Made by a program: the position numbers and the translations under genes
Source of the DNA: a virus
Reading direction: 5' to 3' (one strand)
Virus record (IMG/VR): IMGVR_UViG_3300044632_000653
Length of the DNA stretch: 64,000 bases
Part shown: one piece after another, positions 4,076-21,162 of the stretch
Numbering within the stretch: position 1 is the first letter of the stretch
Layout of the letters: every line of letters starts with the position of its first letter
Notes under the pieces: model-generated
The model's input: the letters and a program-made list of their open reading frames with translations, nothing else
What the model was told of the DNA's origin: nothing
The model's database searches: none

Positions 4076-4097
4076 TCGTCGCTTTCCTTTCGTTCGG

Positions 4098-4561: not shown

Positions 4562-4571
4562 GTCCTTCCCT

Positions 4572-4609: not shown

Positions 4610-4619
4610 GGATCAGGGA

Positions 4620-4979
4620 TCAGAATCCCTCGGGGTACATCCCGTCGAGGTAGTCGTAGACCTCGACGGCGACCCCTGCGGCATCCTCCATCCAAGCAAC
4701 GAACTCCTGCACCTCCTTGACGGTGCGGTCGCCGATGAAGCCCGTGGGGTTGATCGACACCGACCAACCCTTGCGGACCTTGGAGTGGGTCGCCGTGACG
4801 ATGGCGGACCAATACGAGTCCCGCAGGTTGATCACCACCTCGCCGTCATCCACGGTGACGGTCGAGAGATCGAACCGACCGTAGCGGTTGGTCTCAAGCA
4901 GGTCGGTGAACTGCTGCTTGACATGATTCTTGTTGGCGGTGGACTTGGTGGACTTGGTGGACTTGGCGGACTTGCTCAT
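4620..4979 (-). CDS. Hypothetical early protein with KST repeats
   Basis: GAGGAG RBS; MSKSAKSTKSTKST. Confidence 0.7.
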   Translation of the reverse strand: MSKSAKSTKSTKSTANKNHVKQQFTDLLETNRYGRFDLSTVTVDDGEVVINLRDSYWSAIVTATHSKVRKGWSVSINPTGFIGDRTVKEVQEFVAWMEDAAGVAVEVYDYLDGMYPEGF

Positions 4980-4988
4980 GGTTGTCTC

Positions 4989-5026
4989 CTCACCCAAAGA
5001 ATACGATAAGAAACGATTCCTGTCAA
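4989..5026 (-). promoter_or_regulatory. Early sigma70-type promoter, copy 2
   Basis: Near-identical to 4572-4609. Confidence 0.8.
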
Positions 5027-5027
5027 C

Positions 5028-5372
5028 TCACCTAGAGGGGTTTCCCGCAGGATCGTATTCCTTGAAGCCAAGGGCGACGAGGTCACCCCATAGGTCTCGG
5101 GCGGCGATCCGAATCAGGTGCCTCCCGATAGCCGACCTGAAGGTGATGCTCTCCTCGGTCTGCGCCCACTCGGGGAGTACGAGATCGCCCGATGGCTTCC
5201 ATATCCATACGAACTCGTCCATCTTCGGTGACCAATAGAAGACTTGGACATGGTCCTCGGGTCGGCTCATTCGGACATGGAACTCAAATCTCTGACCCAT
5301 GTTCGGGAGGAAGAGCCTGTGACGGACATGGTCTCGGTCGAAGGGGCTCAAGTATTCTCCACGGTGTTCCAT
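5028..5372 (-). CDS. Hypothetical protein
   Basis: ORF in the minus-strand gene run; start uncertain. Confidence 0.5.
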   Translation of the reverse strand: MEHRGEYLSPFDRDHVRHRLFLPNMGQRFEFHVRMSRPEDHVQVFYWSPKMDEFVWIWKPSGDLVLPEWAQTEESITFRSAIGRHLIRIAARDLWGDLVALGFKEYDPAGNPSR

Positions 5373-5800
5373 TCGGGGGGGTCTCCTGCGGAGGGAGTGA
5401 ACGAGGGGGGATGGGCTTGGCGGGTGAGCGAGGTGTAGGGCGGTTCTTGGGCTCGGTAGGAAGGGCTGTTCGGGGGGACGGTCCATCCGTGGGAGGCGAG
5501 GCGTTCCCATACGGATCGGGCGTACTCCACGGACACGGTCATCGGTCTGTCGCTGCCGAGCCGAAGGTCGTGGACCACCGAGGGTCCGACGAGGACGCTC
5601 TGCACCTCAAGCGTGTCGGGAGGATGGCTGTAGGTGGAGGTCTTCGTCCTCCAATACATGATCGTCACCTGACGCTTCACGGCTGCGTCGGTGGCATCGA
5701 ACATCATCACCTTGTAGTGGGAGGTTCCCGAAGGACCATGGATGTGGGATGCCCCCAAGGGACCGATGTTGTACTCCCAAAGGTAGTGGACTTGCGACAT
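5348..5800 (-). CDS. Hypothetical protein
   Basis: TTGACG-17 nt-TATCTT promoter 7 nt before the ATG. Confidence 0.6.
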   Translation of the reverse strand: MSQVHYLWEYNIGPLGASHIHGPSGTSHYKVMMFDATDAAVKRQVTIMYWRTKTSTYSHPPDTLEVQSVLVGPSVVHDLRLGSDRPMTVSVEYARSVWERLASHGWTVPPNSPSYRAQEPPYTSLTRQAHPPSFTPSAGDPPEWNTVENT

Positions 5801-5832
5801 GTCTGAAAAGATAGCATACGACGGAGCCGCCG

Positions 5833-6600
5833 TCAAGAGAAAAGACCTCCCCCGTCCCAACCGTGGTAGGAGACCCACTCGGATCTGTCCACCGTCCCTC
5901 CCCGCCTCATGTTGGGCACCCGAACATCCTTGACCTTCTCCCATTCCCACCCCGTGAAGACCTCTCGGCAGTTCGTCCCGTAGGTCACCATGCAGGGGAC
6001 ATCCCCTCGTCGCTCCACCAACCCCACGGTGTCGGAAGCCCTGTAGCCGTCCTCCATCCCGTCACCATAGTTGCCCACGGTCCCCAAGTACGGAGGGTCG
6101 ATGAAGAGCCCGTCGCCCGTCTCGTACAGATGGTCCTCGCCCCGACCATGCACGACCACGACATCCCGAAGCCGACCGAGGCATCGGATCGTCTCGTCCA
6201 CGGGAAGCCTGTGCTGTGGGTAGACCTTCCATGAAGACAACTGCCCCACGACCACCGAGCAGACATTCACCCGAACATATGCCCTAGCCCCCACAGACAA
6301 TCCCATGTCTCGTACATCGGGCTTCGATTCCAACTTCTTCCGATCCTCGACCAACCGATTCAAGTCACGGAGTTCCTTCTCACCCACCCCTTGGAGCCAA
6401 CGCCACAGTTCCACCAACTCAGGGTTCAGTTCGTAGCCCAAGAGGGGAAGACCCGAGTTCAGCCCGTAGGCTCCCGAGCCGAGATAAGGCTCTACGATGC
6501 GGGTCACCCCATGAGAAAGGGGACGGTACAGACCGAGGAGTTTTGACTTGTTGCCCGAGTAGCGGAAGAGACGGAGAGGGGAGGATGCCATGCACTCCAT
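5833..6600 (-). CDS. DNA adenine methyltransferase (Dam/D12 class)
   Basis: FRYSGNK, EPYLGSGA and IDPPY motifs in alpha-class order. Confidence 0.85.
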   Translation of the reverse strand: MECMASSPLRLFRYSGNKSKLLGLYRPLSHGVTRIVEPYLGSGAYGLNSGLPLLGYELNPELVELWRWLQGVGEKELRDLNRLVEDRKKLESKPDVRDMGLSVGARAYVRVNVCSVVVGQLSSWKVYPQHRLPVDETIRCLGRLRDVVVVHGRGEDHLYETGDGLFIDPPYLGTVGNYGDGMEDGYRASDTVGLVERRGDVPCMVTYGTNCREVFTGWEWEKVKDVRVPNMRRGGTVDRSEWVSYHGWDGGGLFS

Positions 6601-6944
6601 ATCGACCCCGAACAGAGGAAATTGGAGTTTGAAACCCACAGAAACCTCGTTTCCCCGCAAATAGAGGGGTGGGGACACCGTGGGGAGAGCGTGGATGAAG
6701 AAAGATAAGGAAAGAAACGAGAGGGAAGAGGGGGGAAGGACGGGGAAGGATCGGGAACCCCCGCAGTTCGCTAGGAACGATGGCGTGTTAGCCGTCGAGG
6801 CAAAAGCCGAAAAAATTGAGGGGTCTCGCCCTACCACATTCCACGCCCGTGTCAAGAAAAATCCACCAAGATTTTCAAAAAAGTTTCCATGAAAAAACCC
6901 CGAGATTTTCTCTCGGGGCTCTTGACTTTTCTCAAGTCATACTT

Positions 6945-7289
6945 TCAGAACTTCGGCTTGACTTCCCCCTCGTTGATCAGCCGCATGATCTCCTCGGTCG
7001 CCAACTTGTCGAAGTTCGACACCTCGTCGGGAGCCGTGGTCTCGGTGTCGTAGATGTGGCTGATCGTTTGGGTCGGTGGATCTATGAGAGCGACCGCTCC
7101 CGTGTATGAGAGCGAGAGTACAGGATCCTTCTTCCACGCTCCCGATGTCAGTTCGATGAACCGCTTGGCATCCACCCTGTGGTACTGACGGGTGTGAGCG
7201 TCCTGTGCGATGTGGATGGGATTCCCTATCGCCATGCCTATGGGTATGCCTATCTCTTGCAGGGATGTGTAGACCACTACCTGTGCCAT
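6945..7289 (-). CDS. Hypothetical protein
   Basis: AGGAG RBS; followed by a hairpin and T-run at ~6892-6918. Confidence 0.65.
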   Translation of the reverse strand: MAQVVVYTSLQEIGIPIGMAIGNPIHIAQDAHTRQYHRVDAKRFIELTSGAWKKDPVLSLSYTGAVALIDPPTQTISHIYDTETTAPDEVSNFDKLATEEIMRLINEGEVKPKF

Positions 7290-7393
7290 GCGATGCTCCT
7301 GTCTGTTGGGGGTGCGTGTTGGGGGTATGAGAAGACCCACTCCCTCATCGTCCGAAGGGAGTGGGTCTCTTGGTGTCTCGTCTCGGCTCCTCG

Positions 7394-9943
7394 TCACTTG
7401 GCGAGGAGTTCGGCGACTCGGGTCATCAGCGGACGGTTGCCCTTGGTCGCAGCGAGTTGCTTGGCGAACTGATTGCGGAGGCTGCGGAGACCTGCGCCCG
7501 TGGTCGGGTCGGCGGTGAGGTTCACCGTCTCGCTCTTGCGGGTGGCGGGGAGCATGATGTACTCGTCGTAGCCCCGAGCGTCGTTGCCCTTGAGGTTCCA
7601 CCAACCCTTCTCGTTCCATGCCGCCGTCACTTCCTTGGCGAGTTGCTTGCGGCGGTCCATGTACGCCGAGTATCCCTTGCCCGAGAGGGCGTTGAGTTCG
7701 GCGTTGTTCTGAAGGATGCGCTGCACGGCGTTGCCGCCGTCGATCAGGTGGATGCAGACCACCTTGCCGCCGACTCGGTCTCGGAAGAGTTGAGCCATGA
7801 CTCCCGTCTGCGTCTCGGTGTTCAGCGGGGTCTCCAAGACCTTCGTGCGGTCGTAGTACTGCTGCTCACGCTTCGTCATCGTGTATTCCTTGCCCGACTT
7901 CTTGTCACGCATGACGATCCTCGGAGCCTCGGTGTAGTTCTTGTCGGCGTATGCCTTCGTCGCCGTCACCGTCAGGCAGAGGTTGTCGGTCGATTCGCCG
8001 TCCGTCAGGACGATCATGTTGACCAACTGCACCCGCTTGGTCGCCTTGAACTCCTGCGCCACCTGCGAGAGACCGAGGAGGGCGGTGTTGTTCGGAGTGT
8101 GACCGATCAGGTTCGCCCACGGGATCGTGTGCTGAAGGTTGCCGAGGGCGTAGCAGAGACCGTTCTTGTCACCGACAGCAGCCGTGGCGGCGTTGCCGCC
8201 ACCGTTGCCCATCTTGTACGAGACGGCGAGGAGGAGACCTGCCGTCGTGTTGAACTCGGTGAGGCTCATGCCGTCCTCAAGGAGGGTGAGGAGGCGAACC
8301 CGCTCACCCTTGGTCTCGGTGTTCTTGTAGGTCTCGCCGAGATCGTCAAGGCTTGCGACATCGGTGAACCCGTAGAAGCGGTAGGGGATGTTGACTCGGC
8401 GGCAGAAGGCGGCGAGGGTCACCATCTGAACCACCGTGTCGTGGATGATGCCGCTCATCGATGCCGAGAGGTCGAGGAGGAGCATGAGACCGTGGTTCTT
8501 GCCGTCCTTGACATAGGCGTTGGAGGCGAAGATCTCATCCGAGATCTTGTAAGCCCACAGGCGGCTCGGGTCGATGCTGCCCGTCTCGGCGACCGCCGTG
8601 CGGCGGTGTTCGTCAGCAGCCTTGCGGCGGTCGAACTCGGTAGCGAGGACCTGCACCGCCGAGGTGTTCTCGGTTCGCCATGCCGCCATCATCTCGGCGG
8701 CGACCTCGGCGACCGTCTTGTTGGTCCGAGCCGTGCGGAGGTTGGCGACCTTCTTGAGGTCCTCGGCGACCCGCTTGCGGGGGACGATGAACCCCTTGCC
8801 GACCTCGGGGAGGTCTGCGTAGTGGGTGACCGTGGCGGCATCGTCGGTGCGACCGAGGAGGGCATCCTCGACCTCCCGCAGGGTACGAGCCATGGGAGCC
8901 TGACCCTCGTCGTTGTCGCTCTCGTCGTTGTCGCTCTCGTCGGTCTCGGTCTCGTCGCCGTCAGCGTCAGCGTCCCCGTCCTCTTCGGTCGAGGGCTTGT
9001 CAGCGTCAGCGTCGGTCTCTTCACCGTCAGCGTCGGTCTCTTCACCGTCAGCGTCAGCGTCGGTCTCTTCACCGTCAGCGTCAGCGTCGGTCTCGTCGGC
9101 TTCGGTCTCGTCGCCGTCAGCGTCGGTCTCGTCGGCTTCGGCATCGTCACCGTCAGCCTCGTCGGCTTCGGTCTCGTCGCCGTCCTCGTCGCCGTCAGCG
9201 TCGGTGTTGGCGGTCTTCTTTTCTTCCTTCTCCTCGTCGCCGTCAGCGTCGGTCGGAGTCGGGGTCCCGCCCTCTTCGCCTTCCTCGTCACCTTCCTGCG
9301 GCTCACCCCCGTCACCCTTCTCGGGCTCGGGGCGACTCTTGTTCTGAGCCTTAGCGAACTCGTAGATCTCTTTGGCGAGTTCGACCGCATCTTCCCATGT
9401 GAGGGTCGTTGCAGCCCGTTGGGCGAGGGCGAGTTCGTCGGCGGCGAAGGGGACCTCGACAAGCCAACCGATCTTGTACTGAATGTTGATTCGGTCGATG
9501 AGAGCGAGGTCGGCGAGGTTGCCGACCTTGGCGAGACCGAAGAGGTCGGTCTCCTTCATCCACCGATACCCCTTGGCGAAGTCGGTCTTCGTGCCAGGGA
9601 ACCGAGCCTTCATCAGGCGTTCGATTCGGACATCCTCGGTGACATTGAGGTAGTCCTTGGCGACCATCGGGTTCCTCGGGTCGATCCGCTTGCAAGCCTC
9701 AATCAGCGCATCCTTCCCGTTGGGAGTGTGGAGGGCGTGAGAGACTTCGTGAGCGATCAGCATGTCGCCCGTAGCCTCAGGCATGTCCTTCCACACGGGC
9801 ATGGTGAGGGTGCGGGTCTCGACATTGAAGGATGCCGTCTTCGCCCGAGGGTCGTGTTCGACCTTGATGTTTTCGGTCGCCATCAGCCGTGCGAGGCGGT
9901 CCTTGGCGGCGGCGAGGGCGGTGGTGGTCGTGAGGGTGGTCAT
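7394..9943 (-). CDS. CobT-like protein: HExxH metallopeptidase domain, acidic linker, VWA domain
   Basis: AHEVSH; MIDAS LLDLSASM and VLTDGES; divergent from a MoxR AAA gene. Confidence 0.85.
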   Translation of the reverse strand: MTTLTTTTALAAAKDRLARLMATENIKVEHDPRAKTASFNVETRTLTMPVWKDMPEATGDMLIAHEVSHALHTPNGKDALIEACKRIDPRNPMVAKDYLNVTEDVRIERLMKARFPGTKTDFAKGYRWMKETDLFGLAKVGNLADLALIDRINIQYKIGWLVEVPFAADELALAQRAATTLTWEDAVELAKEIYEFAKAQNKSRPEPEKGDGGEPQEGDEEGEEGGTPTPTDADGDEEKEEKKTANTDADGDEDGDETEADEADGDDAEADETDADGDETEADETDADADGEETDADADGEETDADGEETDADADKPSTEEDGDADADGDETETDESDNDESDNDEGQAPMARTLREVEDALLGRTDDAATVTHYADLPEVGKGFIVPRKRVAEDLKKVANLRTARTNKTVAEVAAEMMAAWRTENTSAVQVLATEFDRRKAADEHRRTAVAETGSIDPSRLWAYKISDEIFASNAYVKDGKNHGLMLLLDLSASMSGIIHDTVVQMVTLAAFCRRVNIPYRFYGFTDVASLDDLGETYKNTETKGERVRLLTLLEDGMSLTEFNTTAGLLLAVSYKMGNGGGNAATAAVGDKNGLCYALGNLQHTIPWANLIGHTPNNTALLGLSQVAQEFKATKRVQLVNMIVLTDGESTDNLCLTVTATKAYADKNYTEAPRIVMRDKKSGKEYTMTKREQQYYDRTKVLETPLNTETQTGVMAQLFRDRVGGKVVCIHLIDGGNAVQRILQNNAELNALSGKGYSAYMDRRKQLAKEVTAAWNEKGWWNLKGNDARGYDEYIMLPATRKSETVNLTADPTTGAGLRSLRNQFAKQLAATKGNRPLMTRVAELLAK
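8905..9255 (-). repeat. Degenerate tandem repeats encoding a (DADGEET)n acidic linker
   Basis: Repeated TCACCGTCAGCGTCGGTCTCT-like units. Confidence 0.9.
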
Positions 9944-9959
9944 GGTTTGGGTTCTCTCT

Positions 9960-9995
9960 TCACCTAGAGAATACCAAACCCCCTATGGTTTGCAA
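9960..9995 (-). promoter_or_regulatory. Early promoter of the VWA gene
   Basis: TTGCAA...TAGGGGGTTTGG-TATTCT. Confidence 0.65.
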
Positions 9996-10087
9996 CCTTT
10001 TACGGTGCATGGGCTTGGATTTTCCTATCTTTTCCCGAGGTTTTCGTCCACGGTCGGATTCCGTTAGGTACTCGGCGCATAGCGAGG

Positions 10088-10410
10088 AAGGTCCGATAAC
10101 CTTGTGGACAACTAGGGGGTCTTGACAGCAAGCACCGAAGGTGGTAAGATGGATGCGGACCCCTAAAGTGGCGTATAAAAAAATGCTGCCCCCTTCATTG
10201 TACCATGCCGAGCCGCCCGTTGTCAATGGCAAATCGGGGGAAAATTCCAAGAATTTTGTGGTCGGGGGGTCTTGACAGCGACCGTAGGGGTATGGTACAA
10301 TGAAGGGGGCGACACAAATTTTTAGCCACGCTTGGGGGTCCGCATCCATCTTACCATACCAAGCCGCCTGTTGTCAAGTTCCCAAGTTATCCACAAGGTT
10401 ATCGGACCTT
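10088..10410. repeat. Large imperfect inverted repeat with four sigma70 promoters and two DnaA boxes (candidate origin)
   Basis: Complementary blocks 10088-10113/10385-10410, 10143-10163/10335-10355, 10188-10206/10292-10310; TTATCCACA at 10387-10395, TGTGGACAA at 10103-10111. Confidence 0.85.
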
Positions 10411-10501
10411 GAACGCCGCTTGGCGGCTCGCCGTGGCTCGCCGAGGGCTCACATAAATCCATGTTTTTCCTACCTTTTCGGTACGGAATACCCCTAACGA
10501 G

Positions 10502-10530
10502 TTGACATGGGATAGGGGTTTGCTACCTTA
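10502..10530 (+). promoter_or_regulatory. Early promoter of the AAA gene
   Basis: TTGACA...TAGGGGTTTGC-TACCTT; same design at 22724-22751. Confidence 0.75.
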
Positions 10531-10590
10531 TAGGTGATGAGAGAGGCACTCTCAACTCCCACTCGCACCCTTCAGACGGAGGCTCCGACC

Positions 10591-11859
10591 ATGTCCCTCA
10601 CCCGCCTACAGCAGCAGTTTGTGGATGCCGCCCGTGTGGCATACCCGAACCGCACCGACCTCACGATGCAGGAGGTCCTCGCCGTCTGTAAGACGGCAGG
10701 GATGAACCTCCCGCAATGGCTCACCAACGACCGTCAGTATCGGGTCAAGCGAGGCTTGTACCGCCTCCCGACCGCCGAGGCTCCTGCGGTCAAGGCTGCG
10801 GTCGCCACCGCCCCCAAGACGGTGGCTGCGGCTGTCGCCGAGCCGAGGAAGACCGAGGTCGATGCCTCCCTCGCCTTCATGGGCGGGGCATCGCTCGTCC
10901 CCGCCAAACTCCCGACCTATGTCCCCTTCGGCGCACACGCCGACCTCAACAAGGTCATCAAGAGCCGCCGCTTCTACCCCGTGTACATCACGGGTCTCTC
11001 GGGCAACGGCAAGACCACGACGGTCGAACAGGCTTGCGCCGAGAACGGGCGTGAGTTCTTCCGAGTGAACATCACCCCCGAGACCTGCGAGGACGATCTC
11101 CTCGGCGGCTTCCGTCTCCTCAACGGCGAGACGGTGTGGGTCGATGGTCCCGTGGTGGTCGCCATGAAGCGGGGCGGCATCCTCCTCCTTGACGAGATCG
11201 ACCTCGGCACGATCAAGGTGATGTGCTTGCAGCCTGTCCTTGAGGGCAAGCGGGTCTTCATCAAGAAGACCAACACTTGGGTCGCCCCTATGGAGGGCTT
11301 CAATGTCATCGCCACGGGCAACACGAAGGGCAGGGGCGACGATACGGGCAAGTTCGTCGGAACGAACTGCATGAACGAAGCCTTCCTCGACCGCATCGGC
11401 GAGACGGTCGAGCAGGACTACCCGCCCGAGGCAGTCGAGGTCAAGATCGTCAACGCCAACCTCAAGGCGGTCGGTGTGGTCGGTCAGGAGACCTTCGCCA
11501 CCGCCTTGGTCAAGTGGGCGGCATCGATCCGCAAGACCTTCGCCGAGGGCGAGGGCGACGAGGTGATCACCACCCGCCGCTTGGTTCAGGCTGCGAACGC
11601 CTACGCCATCTACGGCGACCGCCTCAAGGCTGTCGAGAAGGTCACGACTCGGTTCGATGCGGTGACCAAGGCGGCGTTCATCGACCTCTACAAGAAGTTG
11701 GATGCCGAGGCTACGGCTGCGGCTGCTGCCGAGGTCGCTGAAGCCGAGCGTCTCGCACAGGCTCCGACCGCTCAACAGGTCACGCTTCCGAACACGGTGA
11801 CCACGGCTACGGCTGCGACCACGACCACGGCTGCGACCACTACGGGTTGCCCGTTCTGA
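10591..11859 (+). CDS. CobS/MoxR-like AAA+ ATPase
   Basis: Walker A GLSGNGKT, Walker B LLLDEID, sensor ATGN, NEAFLDR. Confidence 0.9.
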   Translation: MSLTRLQQQFVDAARVAYPNRTDLTMQEVLAVCKTAGMNLPQWLTNDRQYRVKRGLYRLPTAEAPAVKAAVATAPKTVAAAVAEPRKTEVDASLAFMGGASLVPAKLPTYVPFGAHADLNKVIKSRRFYPVYITGLSGNGKTTTVEQACAENGREFFRVNITPETCEDDLLGGFRLLNGETVWVDGPVVVAMKRGGILLLDEIDLGTIKVMCLQPVLEGKRVFIKKTNTWVAPMEGFNVIATGNTKGRGDDTGKFVGTNCMNEAFLDRIGETVEQDYPPEAVEVKIVNANLKAVGVVGQETFATALVKWAASIRKTFAEGEGDEVITTRRLVQAANAYAIYGDRLKAVEKVTTRFDAVTKAAFIDLYKKLDAEATAAAAAEVAEAERLAQAPTAQQVTLPNTVTTATAATTTTAATTTGCPF

Positions 11860-11909
11860 TCTTCTCACGAAGAGAGGAGTGGGGTTGAGCCTCCGACTCC
11901 TCTAGTGCC

Positions 11910-11949
11910 TCCCCCCTGCATCGACAACGGTGCAGGGGGTTTTCTTTTT
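11910..11949 (+). terminator. Intrinsic terminator
   Basis: CCCCCTGCA...TGCAGGGGG followed by TTTTCTTTTT. Confidence 0.8.
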
Positions 11950-12491
11950 GGAGTAGAGGTACACGGCAAGCGGATCGAAATCGGACAACGGCTACGGAAG
12001 CATGAGAGCCATGAGAGCCGAGTCGAGTCGAGCCGAGTCGAGTCATGCTCAAGTCATATGGAAACGGATACGAAATGTCGATGGGGGGTTTATATTTTCA
12101 CGGTACACGGCGTGGAGCCTCGGGGCGGCGAAGACCCTCTCCCACCCATCTCCTCCGAGGAAAACTCCAATTTCCCAACCGCTCTCCCGCTCACTCTCTC
12201 CGTTCCTCTGTTATTCTCCAATCATCACCCGATCATCACCCATCACCGCCATGGATCCCTCCTCCAAGCATCTCCCATCTTCCCTCCCGTCTTCCCTCCC
12301 TCTTTCCCAAAGAAAATCGAAGACCCCCCCTCCCCCCACGGGGGTGGGTTCATCCGTTTACCTCCCCTACCCTCAAAAATTTTCTTGCCGTGACGAGCGT
12401 TTTTACAGGTTGAACTCCAACTTTCCCGATGTCACTCCCGATGGCACTCTCAACGGAGACAGAGAATCTAAATAAGAAAGGAAACCCCTCG

Positions 12492-12962
12492 GTGAAGAAT
12501 CCCCTGACCGTCCTGATGTCCCTGCGATACCACGCCACTCGGAAGAAGCCGTTGGTCTACTCCTTCGTCCCCGAGTACTCCGATGCCATGCGTCCTCTCA
12601 CCTACACGGTGGCGAGGGAGCCCATGGAGGTCGAGACCGTCCTCCCCGATGGCAAGGAGACCAAGAACAGGGCGGCTGTCGGCGACATCGTCATGTGCGG
12701 GATCAGCCGTGAGAAGTATGTCATCCGCAGGGAGAAGTTCCCCTCGCTCTACACGGGCACGGTCGGCGAGAGGGTCACGGTGGCGCAGCAGTCCCGTGAG
12801 GTCGCACGGTACACGGGGAAGGACACCCTCCACTTCAAGGCTCCTTGGGGTGAGGACATGGTCGTGAAGACGGGCGACTATGTCGTGAAGGATGGCGGGG
12901 GCGGCGGTCACTACAGGATCGCCAAGTCGGAGTTTGAGCGGACATACGAGCCGATCCCGTGA
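12492..12962 (+). CDS. PGDYG-like protein
   Basis: VGDIVMCG and APWGEDMVVKTGDYVV motifs; TAAATA at 12469. Confidence 0.6.
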   Translation: MKNPLTVLMSLRYHATRKKPLVYSFVPEYSDAMRPLTYTVAREPMEVETVLPDGKETKNRAAVGDIVMCGISREKYVIRREKFPSLYTGTVGERVTVAQQSREVARYTGKDTLHFKAPWGEDMVVKTGDYVVKDGGGGGHYRIAKSEFERTYEPIP

Positions 12963-12976
12963 GAACCCGTGGAACG

Positions 12977-13513
12977 GACGGGCATAGATAAGGTATCGAA
13001 AGGAACTCCAATGACCAACGAGAATCAAATCACCACCGCCACCATGCGGAACCTTGTCGAGGCTGCGAACGGGATCAACGAGGTCCACGGCGGCATCCTC
13101 CCCTCCAAGCCCAATCTTGAAACACGCTTCAAGGCTGCGATTGCTCATAGGAAAACCCTTGAGGATCTCGAAGCGAAGATGGAGTTGTCCATGCGGCGAC
13201 TGAAGGAGGAGATGATCAAACTTGAGAAGGCGAACAATTCCCTTCTCGTCCCTGTTTTGGACACACTTCGCAACAACGAAATTCTACCGAAGTCCATTTC
13301 CGTAGAGGCGCAGAGGCGAATCAAGGAGTGTCAGGCTGCTTGCAACGAAGTTCGCCTCGCTAGCGAGATGGTGGGTACCCATTTGTCCTCCATGAGCAAT
13401 ACTTGGAAGAAGTTGAACTGACGGGTATAGATAAGGTATCGAAAGGAACTCCAATGACCAACGAGAATCAAATCACCACCGCCACCATGCGGAACCTTGT
13501 CGAGGCTGCGAAC
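12977..13513 (+). repeat. 94-bp direct repeat (12977-13070, 13420-13513): late promoter, RBS and 20-codon leader
   Basis: Identical except one C/T; encodes MTNENQITTATMRNLVEAAN. Confidence 0.95.
13011..13421 (+). CDS. Late coiled-coil protein with shared leader
   Basis: TAGATA, AAGGA RBS, ATG. Confidence 0.7.
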   Translation: MTNENQITTATMRNLVEAANGINEVHGGILPSKPNLETRFKAAIAHRKTLEDLEAKMELSMRRLKEEMIKLEKANNSLLVPVLDTLRNNEILPKSISVEAQRRIKECQAACNEVRLASEMVGTHLSSMSNTWKKLN

Positions 13514-13939
13514 ATGATCGGCAACGGGATCGACGAAGACATGACCGAGGGACTTCGGACGGTAGCGAAGTTCTACACCATGCCACTCGGTTTGCAGGTC
13601 GAGTTCAGGTTCGACCCGTCCAAGCCCAAGGAGGTGATATCGGTATCGGGTGGAACGAGCCGCAAGGTGCCGACCGAGTTGGTATTGGGATGGATTGCCT
13701 CCTACAAGCACATCGATGACATGACGAGGACTGAACTCAACGGGGACAAGAGCCACTACGCTGTTCCCGACATGGACCACGGTCACTCGCCCGAGTTCGT
13801 CATCGGTCCTTACTGGAGCAAGTTGTTCCTCAACAGACAGGGAAAGACTTCGATAAAGCACACCTTCCCCGATGTGTATGTCTATCCCCATTGGCTGAAG
13901 CGGATCAGGGAACTGCTGACGGTCAAAAGACTTCCATGA
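13454..13939 (+). CDS. Late hypothetical protein with shared leader
   Basis: Same cassette as 13011 but an unrelated body. Confidence 0.7.
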   Translation: MTNENQITTATMRNLVEAANMIGNGIDEDMTEGLRTVAKFYTMPLGLQVEFRFDPSKPKEVISVSGGTSRKVPTELVLGWIASYKHIDDMTRTELNGDKSHYAVPDMDHGHSPEFVIGPYWSKLFLNRQGKTSIKHTFPDVYVYPHWLKRIRELLTVKRLP

Positions 13940-14376
13940 AGACCTTCGTCTCCTACATCTCCGAGAACGCCCCCGAGGGGGCACCGAAGCCCGAGCGCAA
14001 GATCGGCAAGGTCAAGTATTGGATGAACTTGACGGACAAGCAGGACGGCGAGGAGCCTTTTCGGGAGGTCGAGTACACCCGCAAGGTGAAGTCCGACACC
14101 GTGCCGAACGCCCATTGGTACTTCCTTGGTGACACCCCGATGTCGGGGATGACTAGGGGAGAGAGGCGTTACAGGGCGGCGGTCGTTTTGCTCATCGACA
14201 CCCATGGAATCTTCCTTGCTACGGTGAAGGAGGATGCCAAGATATCCAAGGGCAACTACGGCAGGTGGCAGTCGGGGGACTTTTGGACGGACAACTTCAC
14301 CGCCGCCAAGCGGCATGCCGAGGACCTCGCCCTTCGCCGACTACAGCGAGAACAGCAACCGAAGCCAAAGGCATGA
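13936..14376 (+). CDS. Putative internal head protein
   Basis: MKTFVSYISE leader; ATGA overlap. Confidence 0.7.
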   Translation: MKTFVSYISENAPEGAPKPERKIGKVKYWMNLTDKQDGEEPFREVEYTRKVKSDTVPNAHWYFLGDTPMSGMTRGERRYRAAVVLLIDTHGIFLATVKEDAKISKGNYGRWQSGDFWTDNFTAAKRHAEDLALRRLQREQQPKPKA

Positions 14377-14756
14377 AGACCTTCGTCTCCTACATCTCCG
14401 AGGCTGCGAAGCCTAGTCGTACCGTGCCCTACCGTTGGAGTGCGACGGATACGCAGCATGCCATGAACTACACTCGGACGATGCCGTCATCCGTTCCGAA
14501 CGCCAAGTGGTATGTGGTCGATGGATCATACGACAAGGAGAAGAAGGACTACCGCCTCCTCCGTGACGGGGTGGTAATCGCTCATATCAGGTATCACCCG
14601 AGCGAAGGCGTGTGGCGATGGGAAACCATCCACAGCGCACCTAGAGGTGGATTGGGGATGGGTAGGCACGACAAGGGGAAGTATGTGTCTAGTAAGCCCC
14701 TCGCCCTTTCATTAGCGGAGAAGCAGATCATCGAAAGGGAGAGGACCGCAGGATGA
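14373..14756 (+). CDS. Putative internal head protein
   Basis: Identical MKTFVSYISE leader (31-bp DNA repeat); shares YTR..VPNA.WY with the previous gene. Confidence 0.7.
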   Translation: MKTFVSYISEAAKPSRTVPYRWSATDTQHAMNYTRTMPSSVPNAKWYVVDGSYDKEKKDYRLLRDGVVIAHIRYHPSEGVWRWETIHSAPRGGLGMGRHDKGKYVSSKPLALSLAEKQIIERERTAG

Positions 14757-15145
14757 AGGACTTCCACGGATTCATCTCCGAGGCTCCCGTCTCGTACACC
14801 GCAGTCATGCTCGACCAACGGAGCCATGACCTTCTCATGTCGAGGATGCGTCCTCACATGCCCGAGGGATGGAAGGTGTACGCCCACCACATGACGATGC
14901 ACATGGGAGCGGCGAAGCCCGAGGACAGGGTCGGGCAGTCCGTGACCATCGTCGCAGACGCATGGGCGGCTGACGAGCGCACGGTCGCCGTGAGGGTCAC
15001 GGGTCACCCGAGCAGGAACAGGACCCCGCATGTGACCGTGGCTGTCAATGCCGCTGCGGGTGCGAAGCCCAAGGACAGCAACCTCCACACGGAATGGAAG
15101 CCGATGCCTCCGCTGAGGCTGACGGGCACCGTGGGAGAGGCTTGA
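14753..15145 (+). CDS. 2H phosphoesterase (cyclic phosphodiesterase-like) with a capsid-targeting-like leader
   Basis: Two HxT motifs (HHMTM, PHVTV); leader MKDFHGFISE. Confidence 0.75.
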   Translation: MKDFHGFISEAPVSYTAVMLDQRSHDLLMSRMRPHMPEGWKVYAHHMTMHMGAAKPEDRVGQSVTIVADAWAADERTVAVRVTGHPSRNRTPHVTVAVNAAAGAKPKDSNLHTEWKPMPPLRLTGTVGEA

Positions 15146-15216
15146 AGCGCAAACCCCACAGGCTCCTCCTCTTATGTGCCTTCCTCTAAGTAGGGCAAAG
15201 CACCTTTGGAGGAAGC

Positions 15217-16548
15217 ATGCACAGGATCATCTCGTCCTTCTGCGCCATGGCTCTCGTAGCCTTCGCAGCCGTCACGACCGCCGCAGCGCAGGTGGTCGTG
15301 CCCCCGAGCATCGTCACGCAGCCCGATGGAACCCTGCGGTTGGTCCCCGTGCCACCCGCAACGGTGTACACCCCGTATGTGATCGACCCGAGCATCAAGT
15401 ACAGGCTCGTCATGGAGTCGGGTTGGTCGAACGCCGATTGGCAGGGCAAGACCCGCAACGGTCAGGTCGCCTTGAAGGACCGTGAGATCACGGTTGACCT
15501 GATGGCGATGCCGCTGACGAGGACCGCCGTGATCGACGGCAAGACCGTGACCCTCTTCAGCGTCTTCCGCTCGGCGGATGTCTGCATCGGTTGGGACAAC
15601 ACGAAGTTGGAACTCCTCCCGCTCGGTCCCCAAGGGACGGCGTTCGACGCATCCGTCTTCAACGGGTCGAAGTCGAGGTTGGACCGCATCTCCCCCGCAG
15701 AGGGCGAGGGCTCCGCTCAGGGTGTCGCAGTCCTCCATGCCGAGGTCCTGCCCCCGCCGCAGGAGAGGACCCCCGCACTCCGACCCGACTACTACAGGTG
15801 GAACATGGGAGGATTCCTGTGGCAGGGCGGCTACCGACTCGTAGCCAAGTTGCGGTTCCGAGTGCGGGATGACTTCTACTACCCTGTGCAGTCGAGGACC
15901 GACATACGGATCCTCCCCACCGTCTCCCATGGCGGTGTCGAGTACGCCACCAAGATCGACGGGAGCCCGACCAAGGGGACGAATGTCCTCGGCGAGACGA
16001 GGAGCAGCGTGAACGGCATCCTCTTCGGTGTCGGTCCCGAGTACAAGGTCACCCACTCGCTCGTCGCTCCCGCCGTCAAGGCGAAGGTCGGCGACATCGT
16101 TCCCGTGAAGGTACTCGTATCCTCCGAGACCAAGCCGCAGCGGCTGCACTCGGTCGCCACCAACTTCGCATGGGATCCGTCCAAGTTGGAGTTCATGGGC
16201 ATCTCCACCACGGGATCGCTCTCGTTCCAACAGAACAACCTTCCCTTCGTGGGGGCGGGGAACATCAACGAGGCGACCGTGCCCAAGGACGGGACGGCTG
16301 CGCACAATTGGCTGTGCCGCCTCGGGACGAGGACCGTGGTCACGGGCGGCGGTCTCGTCGCCACGCTGAACTTCAAGGTCGTGTCGGAGTTCGACACGGC
16401 GGCGGTCGAGATCCTCGGCAAGGACGATCCCCGACTCGTCGGCGTGTTCGTGTTGGACGAGTCGGGCATCCTCGGCAGCGACATCCCAGGCGTCTTCGTC
16501 ACGGGAACGAAGGTCAATGCCGTCGTGAAGGGTCCTCTCTCGCCGTGA
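15217..16548 (+). CDS. Secreted protein with two cohesin-like domains
   Basis: Signal peptide ending TAAA-Q; KVGDIVPVKV...FAWDPSKLEFMGI...LVATLNFKV, plus an upstream copy IGWDNTKLEL...LVAKLRFRV. Confidence 0.7.
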   Translation: MHRIISSFCAMALVAFAAVTTAAAQVVVPPSIVTQPDGTLRLVPVPPATVYTPYVIDPSIKYRLVMESGWSNADWQGKTRNGQVALKDREITVDLMAMPLTRTAVIDGKTVTLFSVFRSADVCIGWDNTKLELLPLGPQGTAFDASVFNGSKSRLDRISPAEGEGSAQGVAVLHAEVLPPPQERTPALRPDYYRWNMGGFLWQGGYRLVAKLRFRVRDDFYYPVQSRTDIRILPTVSHGGVEYATKIDGSPTKGTNVLGETRSSVNGILFGVGPEYKVTHSLVAPAVKAKVGDIVPVKVLVSSETKPQRLHSVATNFAWDPSKLEFMGISTTGSLSFQQNNLPFVGAGNINEATVPKDGTAAHNWLCRLGTRTVVTGGGLVATLNFKVVSEFDTAAVEILGKDDPRLVGVFVLDESGILGSDIPGVFVTGTKVNAVVKGPLSP

Positions 16549-16589
16549 TCCATGGGTGATCGATGGTTTCACGGGGATACATACTTCCC

Positions 16590-16901
16590 GTGAGGTCGTT
16601 CAAGTCATACATCTCCGAGGGACCGTACTCGTTCAAGGACTTCAAGGATCCTTGGGCTGTCATGTCGCCCGAGGACCGCAAGGAAGCGAACCGCCTGTTC
16701 AAGGCGGCGATGAAGGCGTTCCCTTCCTCCATGCGGCAGAAGGAACTGCAAGCCAAGTTGTTCGCCCTCCTCGACAAGTATGGGATAGGGAAGACAAAGG
16801 TTGCCGAGGATTGGTCGAAAGAGTACAAGGCTTCGATCAACTGCAACAACCCCAAGGGCTTCTCGCAACGGGCGCATTGCCAAGGCAGGAAAAAGGGATG
16901 A
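16590..16901 (+). CDS. Putative internal head protein
   Basis: GTG start MRSFKSYISE; C-terminal CNNPKGFSQRAHC module; TACATA at 16578. Confidence 0.7.
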   Translation: MRSFKSYISEGPYSFKDFKDPWAVMSPEDRKEANRLFKAAMKAFPSSMRQKELQAKLFALLDKYGIGKTKVAEDWSKEYKASINCNNPKGFSQRAHCQGRKKG

Positions 16902-18202
16902 AGTCATATCACGAACTCGTAATGTTCCTTGAGAACAGCGGTGTGATGAGGTTCACCGAGCGTGGACTCTCGTCCTATCTCAGTTCGGCAGAGCGCATGG
17001 TCAAGGATGCTCAGGCGAGGAGCGGAGACTTCGCACGGATGCAGGACGCACAGATCGCAGCAGTCCTCGGGCATCTCATATCCCATATCACCCGAATCGT
17101 GAACACCGTTCCGAAGGACACGGATCCGAAGGCAGTCGGCATCGCACGGAAACTCCTCTCGCTCGGCGGCAAGGCTGCGAGCGTCAAGAAGGCATTCGAT
17201 GACCTCAGCCGCAGCGGTGCGGCGATTGCTGCGAGGATGACCTCCGAACTGCAAGGCAAGTACGACATGCGGTTTGAGTCATATGATGGAGCGCATCCCT
17301 ACGAGATTGAGCGTGATCGGATCACCAAGGAAACAGTAGCCGCAGCAAAGGCAAGGGGATCGTCAAGGACGCAGGGAGAGAAACTTGCCAAGATAGAGAT
17401 AGAACGATGGAAGAAGGCAGAAGGCAAACACTTGTATTCCGACTTCACGAACCGACAATTTCGTGCAGCAACGGATCAGGAGAAACGAAACGAAGAGCGT
17501 GAAGCGCAAGCAAAGCAAGAAATCTCCCGAATGTTCTCTGATGCTGACAGGCTACTTGTAGCCGCAGGGTTCAAGTTGGAGCGTGGTCCTCAAGGCGGAA
17601 GCCAGTCACGCTATTACACCGATGGTAAAATCAAGGTCCGTATTTCGGACCACGAAGTTCCCATGACTGCGGAGCGTCAACACAACAGGACGGTCAGCGG
17701 CAGGAATCCATGGTTTGAATTCATATTTGGTGAACGAGATAGAGCAGGTGTCCTACGAGTGAATCCGAAGGAGTTGCAGCACTTGCGTGATTGGATTGGT
17801 GATCTGAAGGAAATGCGATCCGAATCCCACGACCCCAAGCACATTGACGAGACTGCCTACGGAGTGTTCTCCAACTACCTCGGTTCCTCCATGATGTCGT
17901 TCGTGCAGACGAAACAGCATGAGTTGGATCGCAGGACCGACAAACTCACGAAGGCTCTCGCCCGTGTGCATGCACAAGGGGCTGCGGGAGTCCAAAGGGA
18001 CCTCGGCTTGCCATTCGCACAGGTCAGCCTCGACGGGGTGGAGTTCCGTCCGCACAGGGGTGGCGTGAGGAAACTCCTCGTCCGATTCAACCCGAACGGG
18101 ACCCTCGGGATCAACGCCGATGGGAAGACGGTGGCGAACTCCGCAGCCCTGCGTGACATCGGTCCCCTCATGGCGAAGATCGTCGGCGGCGGATTCGCAT
18201 AA
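16898..18202 (+). CDS. Multi-module putative internal protein
   Basis: MKSYHELVMFLE leader; central lower-GC module containing SRYY...VRISDH. Confidence 0.65.
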   Translation: MKSYHELVMFLENSGVMRFTERGLSSYLSSAERMVKDAQARSGDFARMQDAQIAAVLGHLISHITRIVNTVPKDTDPKAVGIARKLLSLGGKAASVKKAFDDLSRSGAAIAARMTSELQGKYDMRFESYDGAHPYEIERDRITKETVAAAKARGSSRTQGEKLAKIEIERWKKAEGKHLYSDFTNRQFRAATDQEKRNEEREAQAKQEISRMFSDADRLLVAAGFKLERGPQGGSQSRYYTDGKIKVRISDHEVPMTAERQHNRTVSGRNPWFEFIFGERDRAGVLRVNPKELQHLRDWIGDLKEMRSESHDPKHIDETAYGVFSNYLGSSMMSFVQTKQHELDRRTDKLTKALARVHAQGAAGVQRDLGLPFAQVSLDGVEFRPHRGGVRKLLVRFNPNGTLGINADGKTVANSAALRDIGPLMAKIVGGGFA

Positions 18203-18278
18203 GATCACCGCATAAACGCAGAAACTGAAGACGAACCCCCTTGATGGTTATCGGTAATGAGTGGTAACCTCACAGACC

Positions 18279-18959
18279 ATGAACAAGACTTTCATGCGTA
18301 ACCTTGCCGAGAACATCGCCCTCAACTCTCTTCGCCACGGCGGTCTCCTGCCGAAGCATCAGGTCATCGTGGACCGTCAGGACTCGGACCCATCCACGGT
18401 CCTCGGCAAATGGGACGGGAAGATTCCGTTCGGTCCACCTGCACCAAACGCAAGTGTGGAGACCGTCATGGAACTCAACCACATCGTTGAAGGTCAGACA
18501 CTCGCATCGAAGGAAGAGATCGAATTCAGTCTCTCTATCGACAAGCCGAGGAACCACTACGAATGGTGGAGCAGGGAGGTCGAGTCCCTCACGGGCAGGA
18601 GGCACTCACCCGACAGGCTCTACATGATCGCCGACATGGCTGAGGGATTCCTCCTGCGGCTGAAGGCGCACTTCGACCGACCGAGACCGTATCAACTCGG
18701 TCCCCACCTCGGGAAGCGCATCCACATGTTCCTGCCCGACCCGAGGACACCTTCGTATCCATCGGGTCACTCGTTCGACGCATACCTGATCGCACTCACA
18801 CTCAGCGACGAGCATCCCGAGCATCACGAACGCCTCTTTGAACTCGCCGACACAGTCGGGGTTACGAGGATCATCGGGGGAGTCCACTACTCCTCCGACA
18901 TCACGGCGGGTCGCAACGCCGCCATCATCGCACACCGCATCATCAAGGGAATGAAATGA
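18279..18959 (+). CDS. PAP2-superfamily acid phosphatase
   Basis: KAHFDRPRP, SYPSGHS and RIIGGVHYSSD motifs. Confidence 0.85.
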   Translation: MNKTFMRNLAENIALNSLRHGGLLPKHQVIVDRQDSDPSTVLGKWDGKIPFGPPAPNASVETVMELNHIVEGQTLASKEEIEFSLSIDKPRNHYEWWSREVESLTGRRHSPDRLYMIADMAEGFLLRLKAHFDRPRPYQLGPHLGKRIHMFLPDPRTPSYPSGHSFDAYLIALTLSDEHPEHHERLFELADTVGVTRIIGGVHYSSDITAGRNAAIIAHRIIKGMK

Positions 18960-19267
18960 CAACCCCGAGCCCGAGGGACACCTTCGATGTGGACGATCCG
19001 TTCGCAGAGAACTTCTCGTTTGAGGTGACCGACAATCCCGAGGAGATCGTTCGCACCGTCGAGGGGAAGATGGAGACGCAGCGTGACGCTGCGATCAGGA
19101 TCCATGCGGAGAGCATGGCGCAGGTCGAGAAACTCATACTCCCCCTGCTCAACAACCTGATGAAGAACCCCGACAAGGCGTACATCAAGTGGGAGAATAG
19201 GGTCCCCGCAATCAAGACGCAGATCTCCAAGATCACGGCGATCACCCGCAAGCCGCTCGACTGCTGA
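18956..19267 (+). CDS. Conserved T4-like phage hypothetical protein
   Basis: LILPLLNNLMKNPDKAYIKWENR; ATGA coupling. Confidence 0.65.
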   Translation: MTTPSPRDTFDVDDPFAENFSFEVTDNPEEIVRTVEGKMETQRDAAIRIHAESMAQVEKLILPLLNNLMKNPDKAYIKWENRVPAIKTQISKITAITRKPLDC

Positions 19268-19271
19268 AATA

Positions 19272-19425
19272 AGAAGACCCCCCGTGCGCAACGAGGGGTC
19301 TTCCGATTATAGCCCCGCTAGTTCGGGGACTTTATGGCGAGTTTTACTTCGCCTCACGATGCCTTCTAGTTGGCACGGTGCGGTCGCCTGTCCGTGGGTA
19401 CCCGTGGACGGGCTCTTTTCCCTTG
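19272..19425 (-). ncRNA. Candidate multi-hairpin small RNA
   Basis: Intergenic; minus-strand TACATA at ~19430-19435, four hairpins, terminal terminator. Confidence 0.35.
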
Positions 19426-19491
19426 CATGTATGTATGGAGGTCGAGAGGTGGGGATGCTCTAAATACTCCACACATACGAAAGGGAAATCC

Positions 19492-19758
19492 ATGTACATC
19501 GACCGCAGGACATTGAGGCAGTTGGTTGAGTCGGCGAACGGCATCGGCGACACATCCACACGACAGATCACCGAGGGCTATGAGAAGAAGATCATCTCTT
19601 ACCTTGAGGATGGGGGCTTCAAGAAGGGCGACGCATGGTTCGACATGGGAACCCTTTATGTGAGCAGCAAGGGCTTGGTCGAAAAGGCGAAGACCATCCT
19701 CAAGAAGAAGAGGGACATTTTTGAGTTGCCGAAGATCGTCGTGGACAAGACCTCGTAA
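19492..19758 (+). CDS. Late hypothetical protein
   Basis: TAAATA at 19461; leader LRQLVESAN. Confidence 0.7.
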   Translation: MYIDRRTLRQLVESANGIGDTSTRQITEGYEKKIISYLEDGGFKKGDAWFDMGTLYVSSKGLVEKAKTILKKKRDIFELPKIVVDKTS

Positions 19759-19770
19759 GGATCCGACACC

Positions 19771-20088
19771 ATGAAGAACTACCGTGAGTTCATCACCGAG
19801 ACCTTCGATTCCTTCAAGGTGTTCAAGCACAAGGCGAACGCCAACGAGGAGGATTCCGAGTACGGCATCAGGGCTCTGATCCGATACACCCATGTTCTTC
19901 CCTCGGGTGAGAAGACGGTCATCACCTCTCTCTTTCCTCCGATCCAACTGAGGACAACGGACAACAAATACCAGTTCAATCGCCATCTCAACGCAATGGT
20001 TGCGAGTCTCAAGGCTGAAGGCAGGGAGATCCTCGGCATCCACATGAGAGGTGATCCACTCTACGACAGGCTTATGAAAAGGGGGTAA
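19771..20088 (+). CDS. Putative internal head protein
   Basis: MKNYREFITE leader. Confidence 0.7.
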   Translation: MKNYREFITETFDSFKVFKHKANANEEDSEYGIRALIRYTHVLPSGEKTVITSLFPPIQLRTTDNKYQFNRHLNAMVASLKAEGREILGIHMRGDPLYDRLMKRG

Positions 20089-20091
20089 GAC

Positions 20092-21162
20092 ATGGCAGTA
20101 CTCAAGCACTACAACCCGATCACGCACGACATCTACCACTACCCGTTCCCTGCGAATCAGACGAGCGGAGGGGTCACGCCTGATGGCTACAGCAGCGAGT
20201 CTCAGACCTACGGCATCGTGGATTGGTCGGGCACCCGTTGCCTCGACCGCTACCTCTGTAGGGCGATTGGTAACAGCCCCTTCCTCACGATTCCCTACGA
20301 CATCACAAGCGTGAACTTTTGGAACCAATGCACCTATGCAGCGGTGCTGATCAGTCCACGCCATGCCCTCGTCTGTCAGCACTTCCGTGGAGCGCACAGC
20401 GACCCGAACATCAACACGGGAGGAATCAGGTTCTTTGGCAAGGGGGGCAGCATGTACGAGAACAGGGTGACCCGTGTGTACCTTGATGTCGGACCCGACC
20501 TGACGCTGCTTGAGTTCCTTCAGCCGTTCCCCGATGCGGATCTCAAGATCTACAACAGGATCGCAGACCCGCTCTACATCCCCTCAGGGACTCCCCTGTG
20601 GACCAAGGACAGCAACGGCAAGGTATACAAGACGGTGTTCGACAAGGCGAACTACAACCCCAACACAGATGACACCTACGGCTACTCGTTCCGTCCGTCC
20701 CTCGACGGTGTGAACGACGGCGCATATCAGAACGGTACCCTCGCCATCTTCGTCGGCGACTCTGGTTCGCCCGTGATGGTCCGTGACTCATACGGCGAAA
20801 CCGTATTCGTAGGACTTCAGTACGGCGGTCAGTCGATCAACCGTGCCACCTTCAGCCGCTTGGTGTCGATCCTTGCTCCCTTCAACTACTCCTTGGAGCA
20901 TGTGAAACTCTCCGCTAAGAAGGAAGACATCAATCAGGATGGCAAGGTTGATGCGGAGGACCTTGCCCGTGTCCTCGCTAGTTGGGGTCAGACGAAGGAT
21001 CCGTTCTCGGACATGGACGGAGACGGCAAGGTCGATGGCATCGACATCAGTCTCCTGATGAATGCGTGGGGCTCGTACACGATTCCTACTAGCGCACAGT
21101 CCACGATTCAGCCGCCGATCATCCCTCCTCCCACGGAAACGAACACGAAGCCTCGCTCCTGA
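20092..21162 (+). CDS. Trypsin-like serine protease with a C-terminal dockerin
   Basis: LISPRHALVCQH, PDLTLL, GDSGSP; duplicated DINQDGKVDAEDLARVLASWG / DMDGDGKVDGIDISLLMNAWG. Confidence 0.8.
   Translation: MAVLKHYNPITHDIYHYPFPANQTSGGVTPDGYSSESQTYGIVDWSGTRCLDRYLCRAIGNSPFLTIPYDITSVNFWNQCTYAAVLISPRHALVCQHFRGAHSDPNINTGGIRFFGKGGSMYENRVTRVYLDVGPDLTLLEFLQPFPDADLKIYNRIADPLYIPSGTPLWTKDSNGKVYKTVFDKANYNPNTDDTYGYSFRPSLDGVNDGAYQNGTLAIFVGDSGSPVMVRDSYGETVFVGLQYGGQSINRATFSRLVSILAPFNYSLEHVKLSAKKEDINQDGKVDAEDLARVLASWGQTKDPFSDMDGDGKVDGIDISLLMNAWGSYTIPTSAQSTIQPPIIPPPTETNTKPRS

Follow-up and report, generated by a model that had tools for sequence, protein, structure and literature searches.

The window analyzed here is a 64,000-nucleotide stretch of DNA from the IMG/VR virus record IMGVR_UViG_3300044632_000653. 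It carries two genes on the plus strand, one for a protein with two cohesin modules (P0001) and one for a serine protease with a C-terminal dockerin (P0002). An initial annotation, made from the letters alone, had read these genes as a phage-encoded cohesin-dockerin pair, consisting of a secreted scaffold and a dockerin-tagged, trypsin-like protease, and both open reading frames (ORFs) were recovered at 15217..16548 and 20092..21162. Their features are given below with the evidence for each one (aa, amino acids; HMM, hidden Markov model; pLDDT, predicted local distance difference test).

15217..16548, plus strand: coding sequence of P0001, predicted secreted two-cohesin protein, 443 aa (ORF, Pfam, AlphaFold2 model)
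15217..15291, plus strand: Sec-type signal peptide, P0001 residues 1-25 (family alignment; helix 2-19 in the model)
15388..16002, plus strand: diverged N-terminal cohesin-like module of P0001, about residues 58-262 (hhalign, cohesin-domain HMM, alignment to the dyad 3l8q)
16030..16545, plus strand: C-terminal cohesin module, P0001 residues 272-443, with conserved W..NE..VPKDG (PF00963; Z 14.2 to 6kgc_A)
20092..21162, plus strand: coding sequence of P0002, predicted dockerin-tagged serine protease, 356 aa (ORF, Pfam, structure model)
20092..20901, plus strand: chymotrypsin-fold (V8/Esp-like) protease domain, P0002 residues 1-270, triad H97/D136/S224 (structure comparison, alignment)
20923..21072, plus strand: dockerin with two EF-hand-like Ca loops and two helices, P0002 residues 278-327 (PF00404, conserved ligands, model)
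21073..21159, plus strand: Pro-rich tail with a conserved terminal KPR[AS] motif (alignment; pLDDT below 50 at residues 338-356)

The two-cohesin protein and the dockerin-tagged protease

The ATG of P0001 is preceded by a ribosome-binding site (GGAGGAAGC), and the protein begins with MHRIISSFCAMALVAFAAVTTAAAQ, whose n-region, h-region and AxA motif follow the pattern of a Sec signal peptide: MHR, then a hydrophobic core and AAAQ. In the alignment of relatives the hydrophobic leader ending in A.AQT is conserved in character, and the signal peptide reported by the initial annotation is upheld. Pfam Cohesin (PF00963) matched residues 283-392 with 26.2 bits against a cutoff of 24.1, a match also present in the precomputed annotation of many P0001 relatives. 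An AlphaFold2 model built from 26 relatives (mean pLDDT 84) placed residues 275-443 on solved cohesins with Z scores of 12 to 14.2 and a root-mean-square deviation (rmsd) of about 2.6 A. The top single-domain structure for this C-terminal module was 6kgc_A (Z 14.2, 138 of 144 residues), and the structural ranks 1 to 40 were all occupied by cohesins. As modelled, the module is a nine-stranded jelly-roll beta-sandwich, the fold expected of a cohesin, superposed over nearly its full length.

The N-terminal module of P0001, at about residues 45-268, is invisible to Pfam. It was aligned by hhalign to the C-terminal module with a probability of 96.2% (E 2e-9, 161 columns); identity between the two is only about 24%, and they have the motifs WD.TKLE and (L)xFKV..DF in common. 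In many relatives this region is matched by a cohesin-domain HMM. The best Foldseek match of the whole protein was the scaffoldin cohesin dyad 3l8q (E 4e-10), and comparison of the whole model with this dyad gave a Z score of 12.6 over 281 residues. Judged by sequence, the N-terminal module is a copy of the C-terminal module that has diverged, and the description of the protein as two cohesins is correct. P0001 stops just after the second cohesin: Pfam finds no other domain in it, and its C-terminus has neither a hydrophobic nor a PEP-CTERM segment. A minus-strand ORF of 466 aa that overlaps the cohesin gene (15172-16572) was treated as a GC-rich shadow ORF and dismissed, given that the product of the plus strand belongs to a conserved family.

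Residues 1-270 of P0002 adopt a double beta-barrel chymotrypsin fold in the structural model (pLDDT 89). The top structural matches of this domain were Esp and V8 (Z 15-15.5, rmsd 3.3-3.5 A over 176-187 residues), and at least 500 Foldseek matches of the protein were all PA-clan proteases. H97, D136 and the G222-D-S224-G-x-P227 motif (GDSGSP) are invariant in 28 sequences of the family. No Pfam trypsin model (PF00089, PF13365) matched P0002 at E<=1 and it was therefore filed as a divergent S1-like family. Following the protease domain, Pfam Dockerin_1 (PF00404) matched residues 278-324 with 37.1 bits against a cutoff of 22.9. The two 12-residue Ca loops are formed by D279/N281/D283/D287/D290 and D307/D309/D311/D315/D318, ligands which, D309 excepted, are all invariant or at least 90% conserved in 28 sequences, and in the model each loop is followed by a helix (288-296 and 316-324). 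The best solved relative of this dockerin was the Clostridium perfringens GH84 dockerin 2jnk/2ozn (E 7e-4). Beyond it, a Pro-rich linker leads to an extreme C-terminus, KPR[AS] (21145-21159), that is conserved in the family.

A stop codon lies two codons 5' of the P0002 ATG and excludes an N-terminal extension or signal peptide, in agreement with the leaderless protease of the initial annotation. Since the near-invariant N-terminus of the family, MAVLK (20092-20106), aligns with the mature N-terminus of V8/Esp, the enzyme seems to be made without a pro-peptide. P0002 is, to judge from its alignment and model, a leaderless V8/Esp-like serine protease, of predicted activity, joined to a canonical two-loop dockerin, much as the trypsin-like protease with a duplicated Ca-binding tail had been described.

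Linkage of the two genes and the candidate host

Relatives of each protein form about 50 clusters, all of them metagenomic and many on IMG/VR viral contigs. No PHROGs family matched P0001 or P0002, GenBank phages gave neither a DNA match to the region nor a tblastn match to the protease, and a PDB sequence search with the P0001-family profile returned no match. The two genes were found 0.4-3.5 kb apart in three lineages, with varying gene order: the distance is 3.5 kb in the window and in its relative G001, whereas the cohesin gene lies 0.7 kb upstream of the protease gene in G010 and 0.4 kb downstream of it in G009. Both genes are carried by the only two near-complete genomes, G009 (174.6 kb, 100% complete) and G014 (168 kb, 93%), being about 23 kb apart in the latter if its ends are joined. 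A single dockerin ORF is present in the window. G009 has the protease as its only Pfam dockerin match and one P0001-family cohesin gene, which is consistent with a 1:1 pair.

Beyond the phage family, an exhaustive search related the C-terminal module of P0001 (about 30-38% identity) to small secreted proteins in which a signal peptide and a single cohesin precede a WG-type dockerin or a PEP-CTERM anchor. The W, NE, P and DG positions are invariant both in the phage module and in these Planctomycetota cohesins, whose partners are WG-type dockerins like that of the phage. We scanned one genome per prokaryote species with a degenerate DNA pattern, followed by HMM confirmation. This yielded 37 ORF matches on 35 loci, often adjoining further dockerin proteins and all in Planctomycetota metagenome-assembled genomes (MAGs) or unnamed lake bins; the Planctomycetota matches include Phycisphaerales, Planctomycetaceae and Isosphaeraceae. 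Matches of the degenerate pattern in Sphingomonas, Gammaproteobacteria and similar bacteria held no cohesin. The cohesin subfamily occurred in 25 of 101 genomes of one Phycisphaerales family and in 5 of 301 sampled phylum-wide. A recurrent cassette was seen in Planctomycetota (L123, L154, L166, L168, L149, L160), in which a secreted cohesin-plus-dockerin protein of 265-315 aa is directly followed by a protein of 320-350 aa with an N-domain of unassigned family and a C-terminal dockerin; related proteins end in PEP-CTERM anchors.

The enrichment in Phycisphaerales fits the published proposal of a 'planctosome' in freshwater Phycisphaerae (Nemodlikiaceae), for which peptidases are the proposed cargo (PMC6461901). 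The initial annotation had pointed both to this proposal and to a Phycisphaerae link, and both pointers proved sound. The host is probably a Planctomycetota bacterium of Phycisphaerae type, as suggested by these module affinities. Other clues were uninformative: only the universal 28-nt 3' end of the phage transfer-messenger RNA (tmRNA) was matched, and positions 1-20000 of the window gave no CRISPR-like or prophage match to the 101 genomes of the candidate host family. The only nucleotide similarity to that family (66-78%) was at 8951-9251, inside a peptidase gene. This gene, on the minus strand at 7394-9943, encodes an 849-aa peptidase of phrog_459 (E 7e-139).

Phage setting and promoter-like elements

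That the window is phage DNA, as initially annotated, was confirmed by a gp43-type DNA polymerase (phrog_262, 1033 bits; 48% identity to polymerases of Synechococcus myoviruses, or cyanomyoviruses) and other core genes, among them a DnaB/gp41-type helicase (phrog_19) and CobS. Four transfer RNAs (Arg-CCT, Leu-CAA, Gln-TTG, Ile-TAT) and the tmRNA (tag AKFNVQPRQRLALAA) are encoded at 32491-35867 and 60357-60431, and nearly all genes are on the plus strand. By its gene content the window is part of a large T4-like freshwater myovirus of Straboviridae/Kyanoviridae type, an assignment that rests on replication-type core genes, the structural genes lying outside the window.

The elements and genes around and between the two coding sequences are:

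302, 12468, 19460, 23697, 25211, 33568, 39728, 40875 and 47483, plus strand: copies of CTAAATA
15186..15192, plus strand: CTAAGTA, one mismatch to CTAAATA, 31 nt 5' of the cohesin ATG
16895-18202, plus strand: ORF with a T4 internal-protein-like (capsid-targeting, CTS) leader, MKSYHELVMFLE, between the cohesin and protease genes
18261-18959, plus strand: PAP2-superfamily phosphatase (Pfam, 43 bits), between the cohesin and protease genes
19460..19466, plus strand: CTAAATA element at the head of the unit ending with the protease gene
19771..20088, plus strand: small ORF directly 5' of the protease gene, leader MKNYREFITE (phrog_2667; context only)

The motif CTAAATA occurs nine times against 0.76 expected, always on the plus strand and always 12-32 nt 5' of an ORF start, and is probably this phage's version of the T4 late-promoter core; the T4 late consensus TATAAATA was not found in the window. 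A late promoter, TAAGTA, had been assigned to the cohesin gene in the initial annotation. As a recurring promoter this hexamer was rejected, being present in a single copy in the window, and it is better read as part of a CTAAATA variant: CTAAGTA differs from the recurrent motif at one position, and its 31-nt spacing from the ATG equals that at two CTAAATA sites. Together with the element at 19460, this suggests that the P0001 and P0002 genes are probably both expressed late.

The small ORF before the protease gene matched phrog_2667 (internal head protein) with an E value of 3.8e-4 over its first 30 residues only. Neither P0001 nor P0002 bears the T4-type capsid-targeting leader of these neighbouring ORFs. 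The position of the PAP2 phosphatase is kept in G001 and in G002, another relative, and the protein has no obvious membrane segments.

Possible roles of the pair and known systems

We tentatively favour the reading that P0001 and P0002 are a putative cognate cohesin-dockerin pair whose members meet only outside the cytoplasm. The phage would carry two accessory genes from a host-type, non-cellulosomal cohesin-dockerin toolkit. P0001 would be exported by Sec as a soluble, unanchored two-cohesin protein, while P0002 would be made in the cytoplasm in mature form, leaderless and without a pro-peptide, and the two would come together only once lysis breaks the envelope, or outside the cell. There Ca2+ would fold the dockerin and P0001 could capture up to two protease molecules, which would be concentrated or positioned on envelope or surface proteins of lysing or neighbouring cells. 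Dockerin folding requires Ca2+, and this requirement, together with the separate compartments of the two proteins, would place any interaction at or after the breach of the envelope. Because both modules are host-type, the phage dockerin probably also uses host cohesins, and such use would explain relatives that keep the protease without a phage cohesin. A wider formulation, possible but offered with greater reserve, is that the virus took over the host cohesin-dockerin 'Lego': the leaderless protease would be joined by Ca2+ to the exported two-socket scaffold at lysis, or would be plugged onto host surface cohesins, and would thereby remodel the protein-rich Planctomycetota envelope.

Several observations weigh against a cognate pair. 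Before lysis the compartments do not match, the cohesin being exported and the protease leaderless. G002, whose protease is 80% identical and whose locus is syntenic, keeps an intact dockerin-protease without a full cohesin gene: at the syntenic site (L003, IMGVR_UViG_3300014720_000036, 697-816) there is a cohesin 3' remnant of about 40 codons, ending in FIGLWVSDDSMPLGSTISGSSVLGAQNGVTVRGVLSP and the stop codon, the remainder is replaced by an unrelated small ORF, and the intact protease-dockerin lies 4.8 kb downstream. Likewise, G006 is collinear with G014 and has an intact dockerin-protease but no cohesin at the syntenic site, with 2.2 kb where G014 has 7.2 kb including the cohesin. The fragments G003-G005 and G008 (23-73% complete) carry the protease and no P0001-family cohesin; in the three records that are 62-73% complete and show this pattern, the dockerin is intact. 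At most cohesin loci there is no dockerin within 10 kb. Divergence is also far more rapid in the cohesin family than in the protease: after G001, the next relative shows at most 55% identity for the cohesin against about 80% for the protease. Finally, the nearest Atlas clusters of the protease domain are commonest in Verrucomicrobiota and phages, which weighs against the host assignment drawn from homologue distribution. Co-folding of the C-terminal cohesin (272-443) with the dockerin (272-334) gave a score of 0.01, the partner's own fold being uncertain in that model, and this result speaks neither for nor against binding. As the genome comparisons indicate, the linkage of cohesin and protease is real but not obligatory; of the two, the cohesin can more easily be dispensed with and evolves faster. 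Co-occurrence across relatives, on which the initial annotation had staked its pair, is borne out by the three lineages and the two near-complete genomes but breaks down in at least two relatives that have the protease-dockerin and no cohesin at the syntenic site.

These absences support the main rival, in which the two proteins are independent plug-ins to the host network and need not bind each other. The protease, either virion-borne or freed when the cell lyses, would attach to cohesins on the host surface, such as the PEP-CTERM-anchored proteins or cohesin-dockerin chains of Planctomycetota, and cut surface proteins, with a gain in adsorption, penetration or spread, and the exported phage cohesin would bind host dockerin proteins and cap or displace them. 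Along with G002 and G006, no cohesin was found in G004 and G005 (62-73% complete). The host-type nature of the modules also agrees with this explanation, as do the bacterial homologues, which are surface-anchored (PEP-CTERM) or chained via their own dockerins. Dockerins on phage contigs are, moreover, not rare. They were found on baseplate-wedge (PF23786) or subtilase (Peptidase_S8) proteins of other IMG/VR contigs (L037, L038, L040 and L048, with ORFs of 830-900 aa; L044-L047, with ORFs of 483-487 aa) and on an 816-aa protein that adjoins a protease-dockerin (L027, 3877-6324). No cohesin was detected within 10 kb of these baseplate-wedge, subtilase and 816-aa-protein dockerins, which shows that a dockerin on a phage can function with no cohesin from the phage itself; phage dockerins seem, from these contigs, to be widespread and to reside on varied proteins. 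Against independent plug-ins, the two genes are repeatedly found close together in differing orders and are both present in the two near-complete genomes, and the host is assigned only indirectly. We consider this explanation somewhat less likely than the cognate pair, of which it is a strong competitor.

A second rival draws on an analogy with T4, whose Spackle protein (gp61.3) inhibits the gp5 lysozyme. The protease would be a virion-borne entry enzyme and the exported cohesin, at the periplasm or surface of the infected cell, would trap the dockerin of superinfecting relatives, resulting in superinfection exclusion or in the avoidance of self-damage at lysis. The asymmetry of export suits a periplasmic binder of an incoming factor, and an optional, fast-evolving cohesin is what would be expected of an exclusion gene. 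Yet the protease is without the T4-type capsid-targeting leader of its neighbours, and the cohesin gene appears to be late, as far as its promoter-like element tells, when exclusion genes are usually early; such a decoy is improbable. Equally hard to credit is the absence of any cohesin-dockerin interaction, in which case the beta-sandwiches would be adhesion domains of a general Ig-like or carbohydrate-binding kind and the dockerin-like tail a Ca-dependent stabiliser or switch. Many beta-sandwiches do look like cohesin folds, Foldseek also scored integrin calf/thigh domains and the Pfam cohesin score is barely over its cutoff, but the structural matches are specific to cohesins and near full length (Z 12-14 over 130-146 residues, the top 40 rows all being cohesins), the invariant motifs are common to bacterial cohesins fused to dockerins, and the cohesin and protease genes are linked.

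Our search of the literature on dockerin or cohesin with bacteriophage or Planctomycetes phage found no natural phage pair described, the only trace being a brief mention of a 'dockerin' gene in a brine-pool jumbo phage. The combination of a T4-like phage, an exported two-cohesin protein, an S1 protease cargo and Planctomycetota-type modules appears to be new. Cohesin-dockerin pairs rank among the tightest modular protein interactions and, to our knowledge, nearly all work on them concerns cellulosomes. If true, a natural pair encoded by a phage would extend the system to viruses, would open the biology of uncultured freshwater Planctomycetota and of their phages to concrete tests, and would offer new orthogonal cohesin-dockerin pairs for protein engineering. 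It would also be an independent test of the planctosome idea, because phages tend to copy systems that are important at the host surface. The occurrence of dockerins on a baseplate-wedge protein, a subtilase and an S1 protease in unrelated phage contigs suggests that host cohesins may be phage receptors or docking sites; if so, the protease and baseplate dockerins would represent a general and hitherto undescribed phage use of these host proteins.

Among known systems, P0001 resembles cellulosomal scaffoldins (the Acetivibrio cellulolyticus ScaA type II dyad 3l8q and C. acetobutylicum CohA2-Doc0917, 6kgc) in having tandem cohesins on one secreted polypeptide. Unlike them it is accompanied by neither a set of dockerin-bearing enzymes nor glycoside hydrolases, and it has no anchoring or targeting module (SLH, sortase signal, type II dockerin, PEP-CTERM, LTD or carbohydrate-binding module, CBM). 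With no anchor on P0001 and one dockerin protein per genome, a single dockerin ORF being present in the window and in G009, the term scaffold used in the initial annotation does not hold in the cellulosome sense. Closer in kind are the C. perfringens toxin-complex pairs (GH84/GH33; 2jnk/2ozn, 2vo8, 2jh2, 2w1n), where hydrolases are joined in a non-cellulosomal way and whose cohesins were among the top structural matches of P0001 (Z 13.3-13.9); there, however, the enzymes are glycosidases of a Gram-positive pathogen, both partners are secreted, no phage is involved and cohesin identity to P0001 is 9-13%. The protease domain shares with staphylococcal V8 (SspA) and Esp (family S1B) the fold, the H-D-S triad with GDSG and the alignment of the mature N-terminus, but it is only 14-15% identical to them, lacks their signal peptide and pro-peptide and has a C-terminal dockerin. 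The likeness to T4 Spackle (gp61.3) and gp5 lysozyme would be one of function only, an exported phage protein set beside a leaderless phage hydrolase, with no homology. The nearest counterparts are the planctosome or Phycisphaerales-type cohesin proteins. The phage system differs from them in being phage-encoded, in having a cohesin protein with two cohesins that bears neither a dockerin nor an anchor such as PEP-CTERM, in having one dockerin protein per phage genome and in its cargo, a leaderless S1-type serine protease in place of secreted M12/M14 metallopeptidases. What it has in common with them is the cohesin subfamily, the WG-ending dockerin, the signal peptide on the cohesin protein and a peptidase as the proposed cargo.

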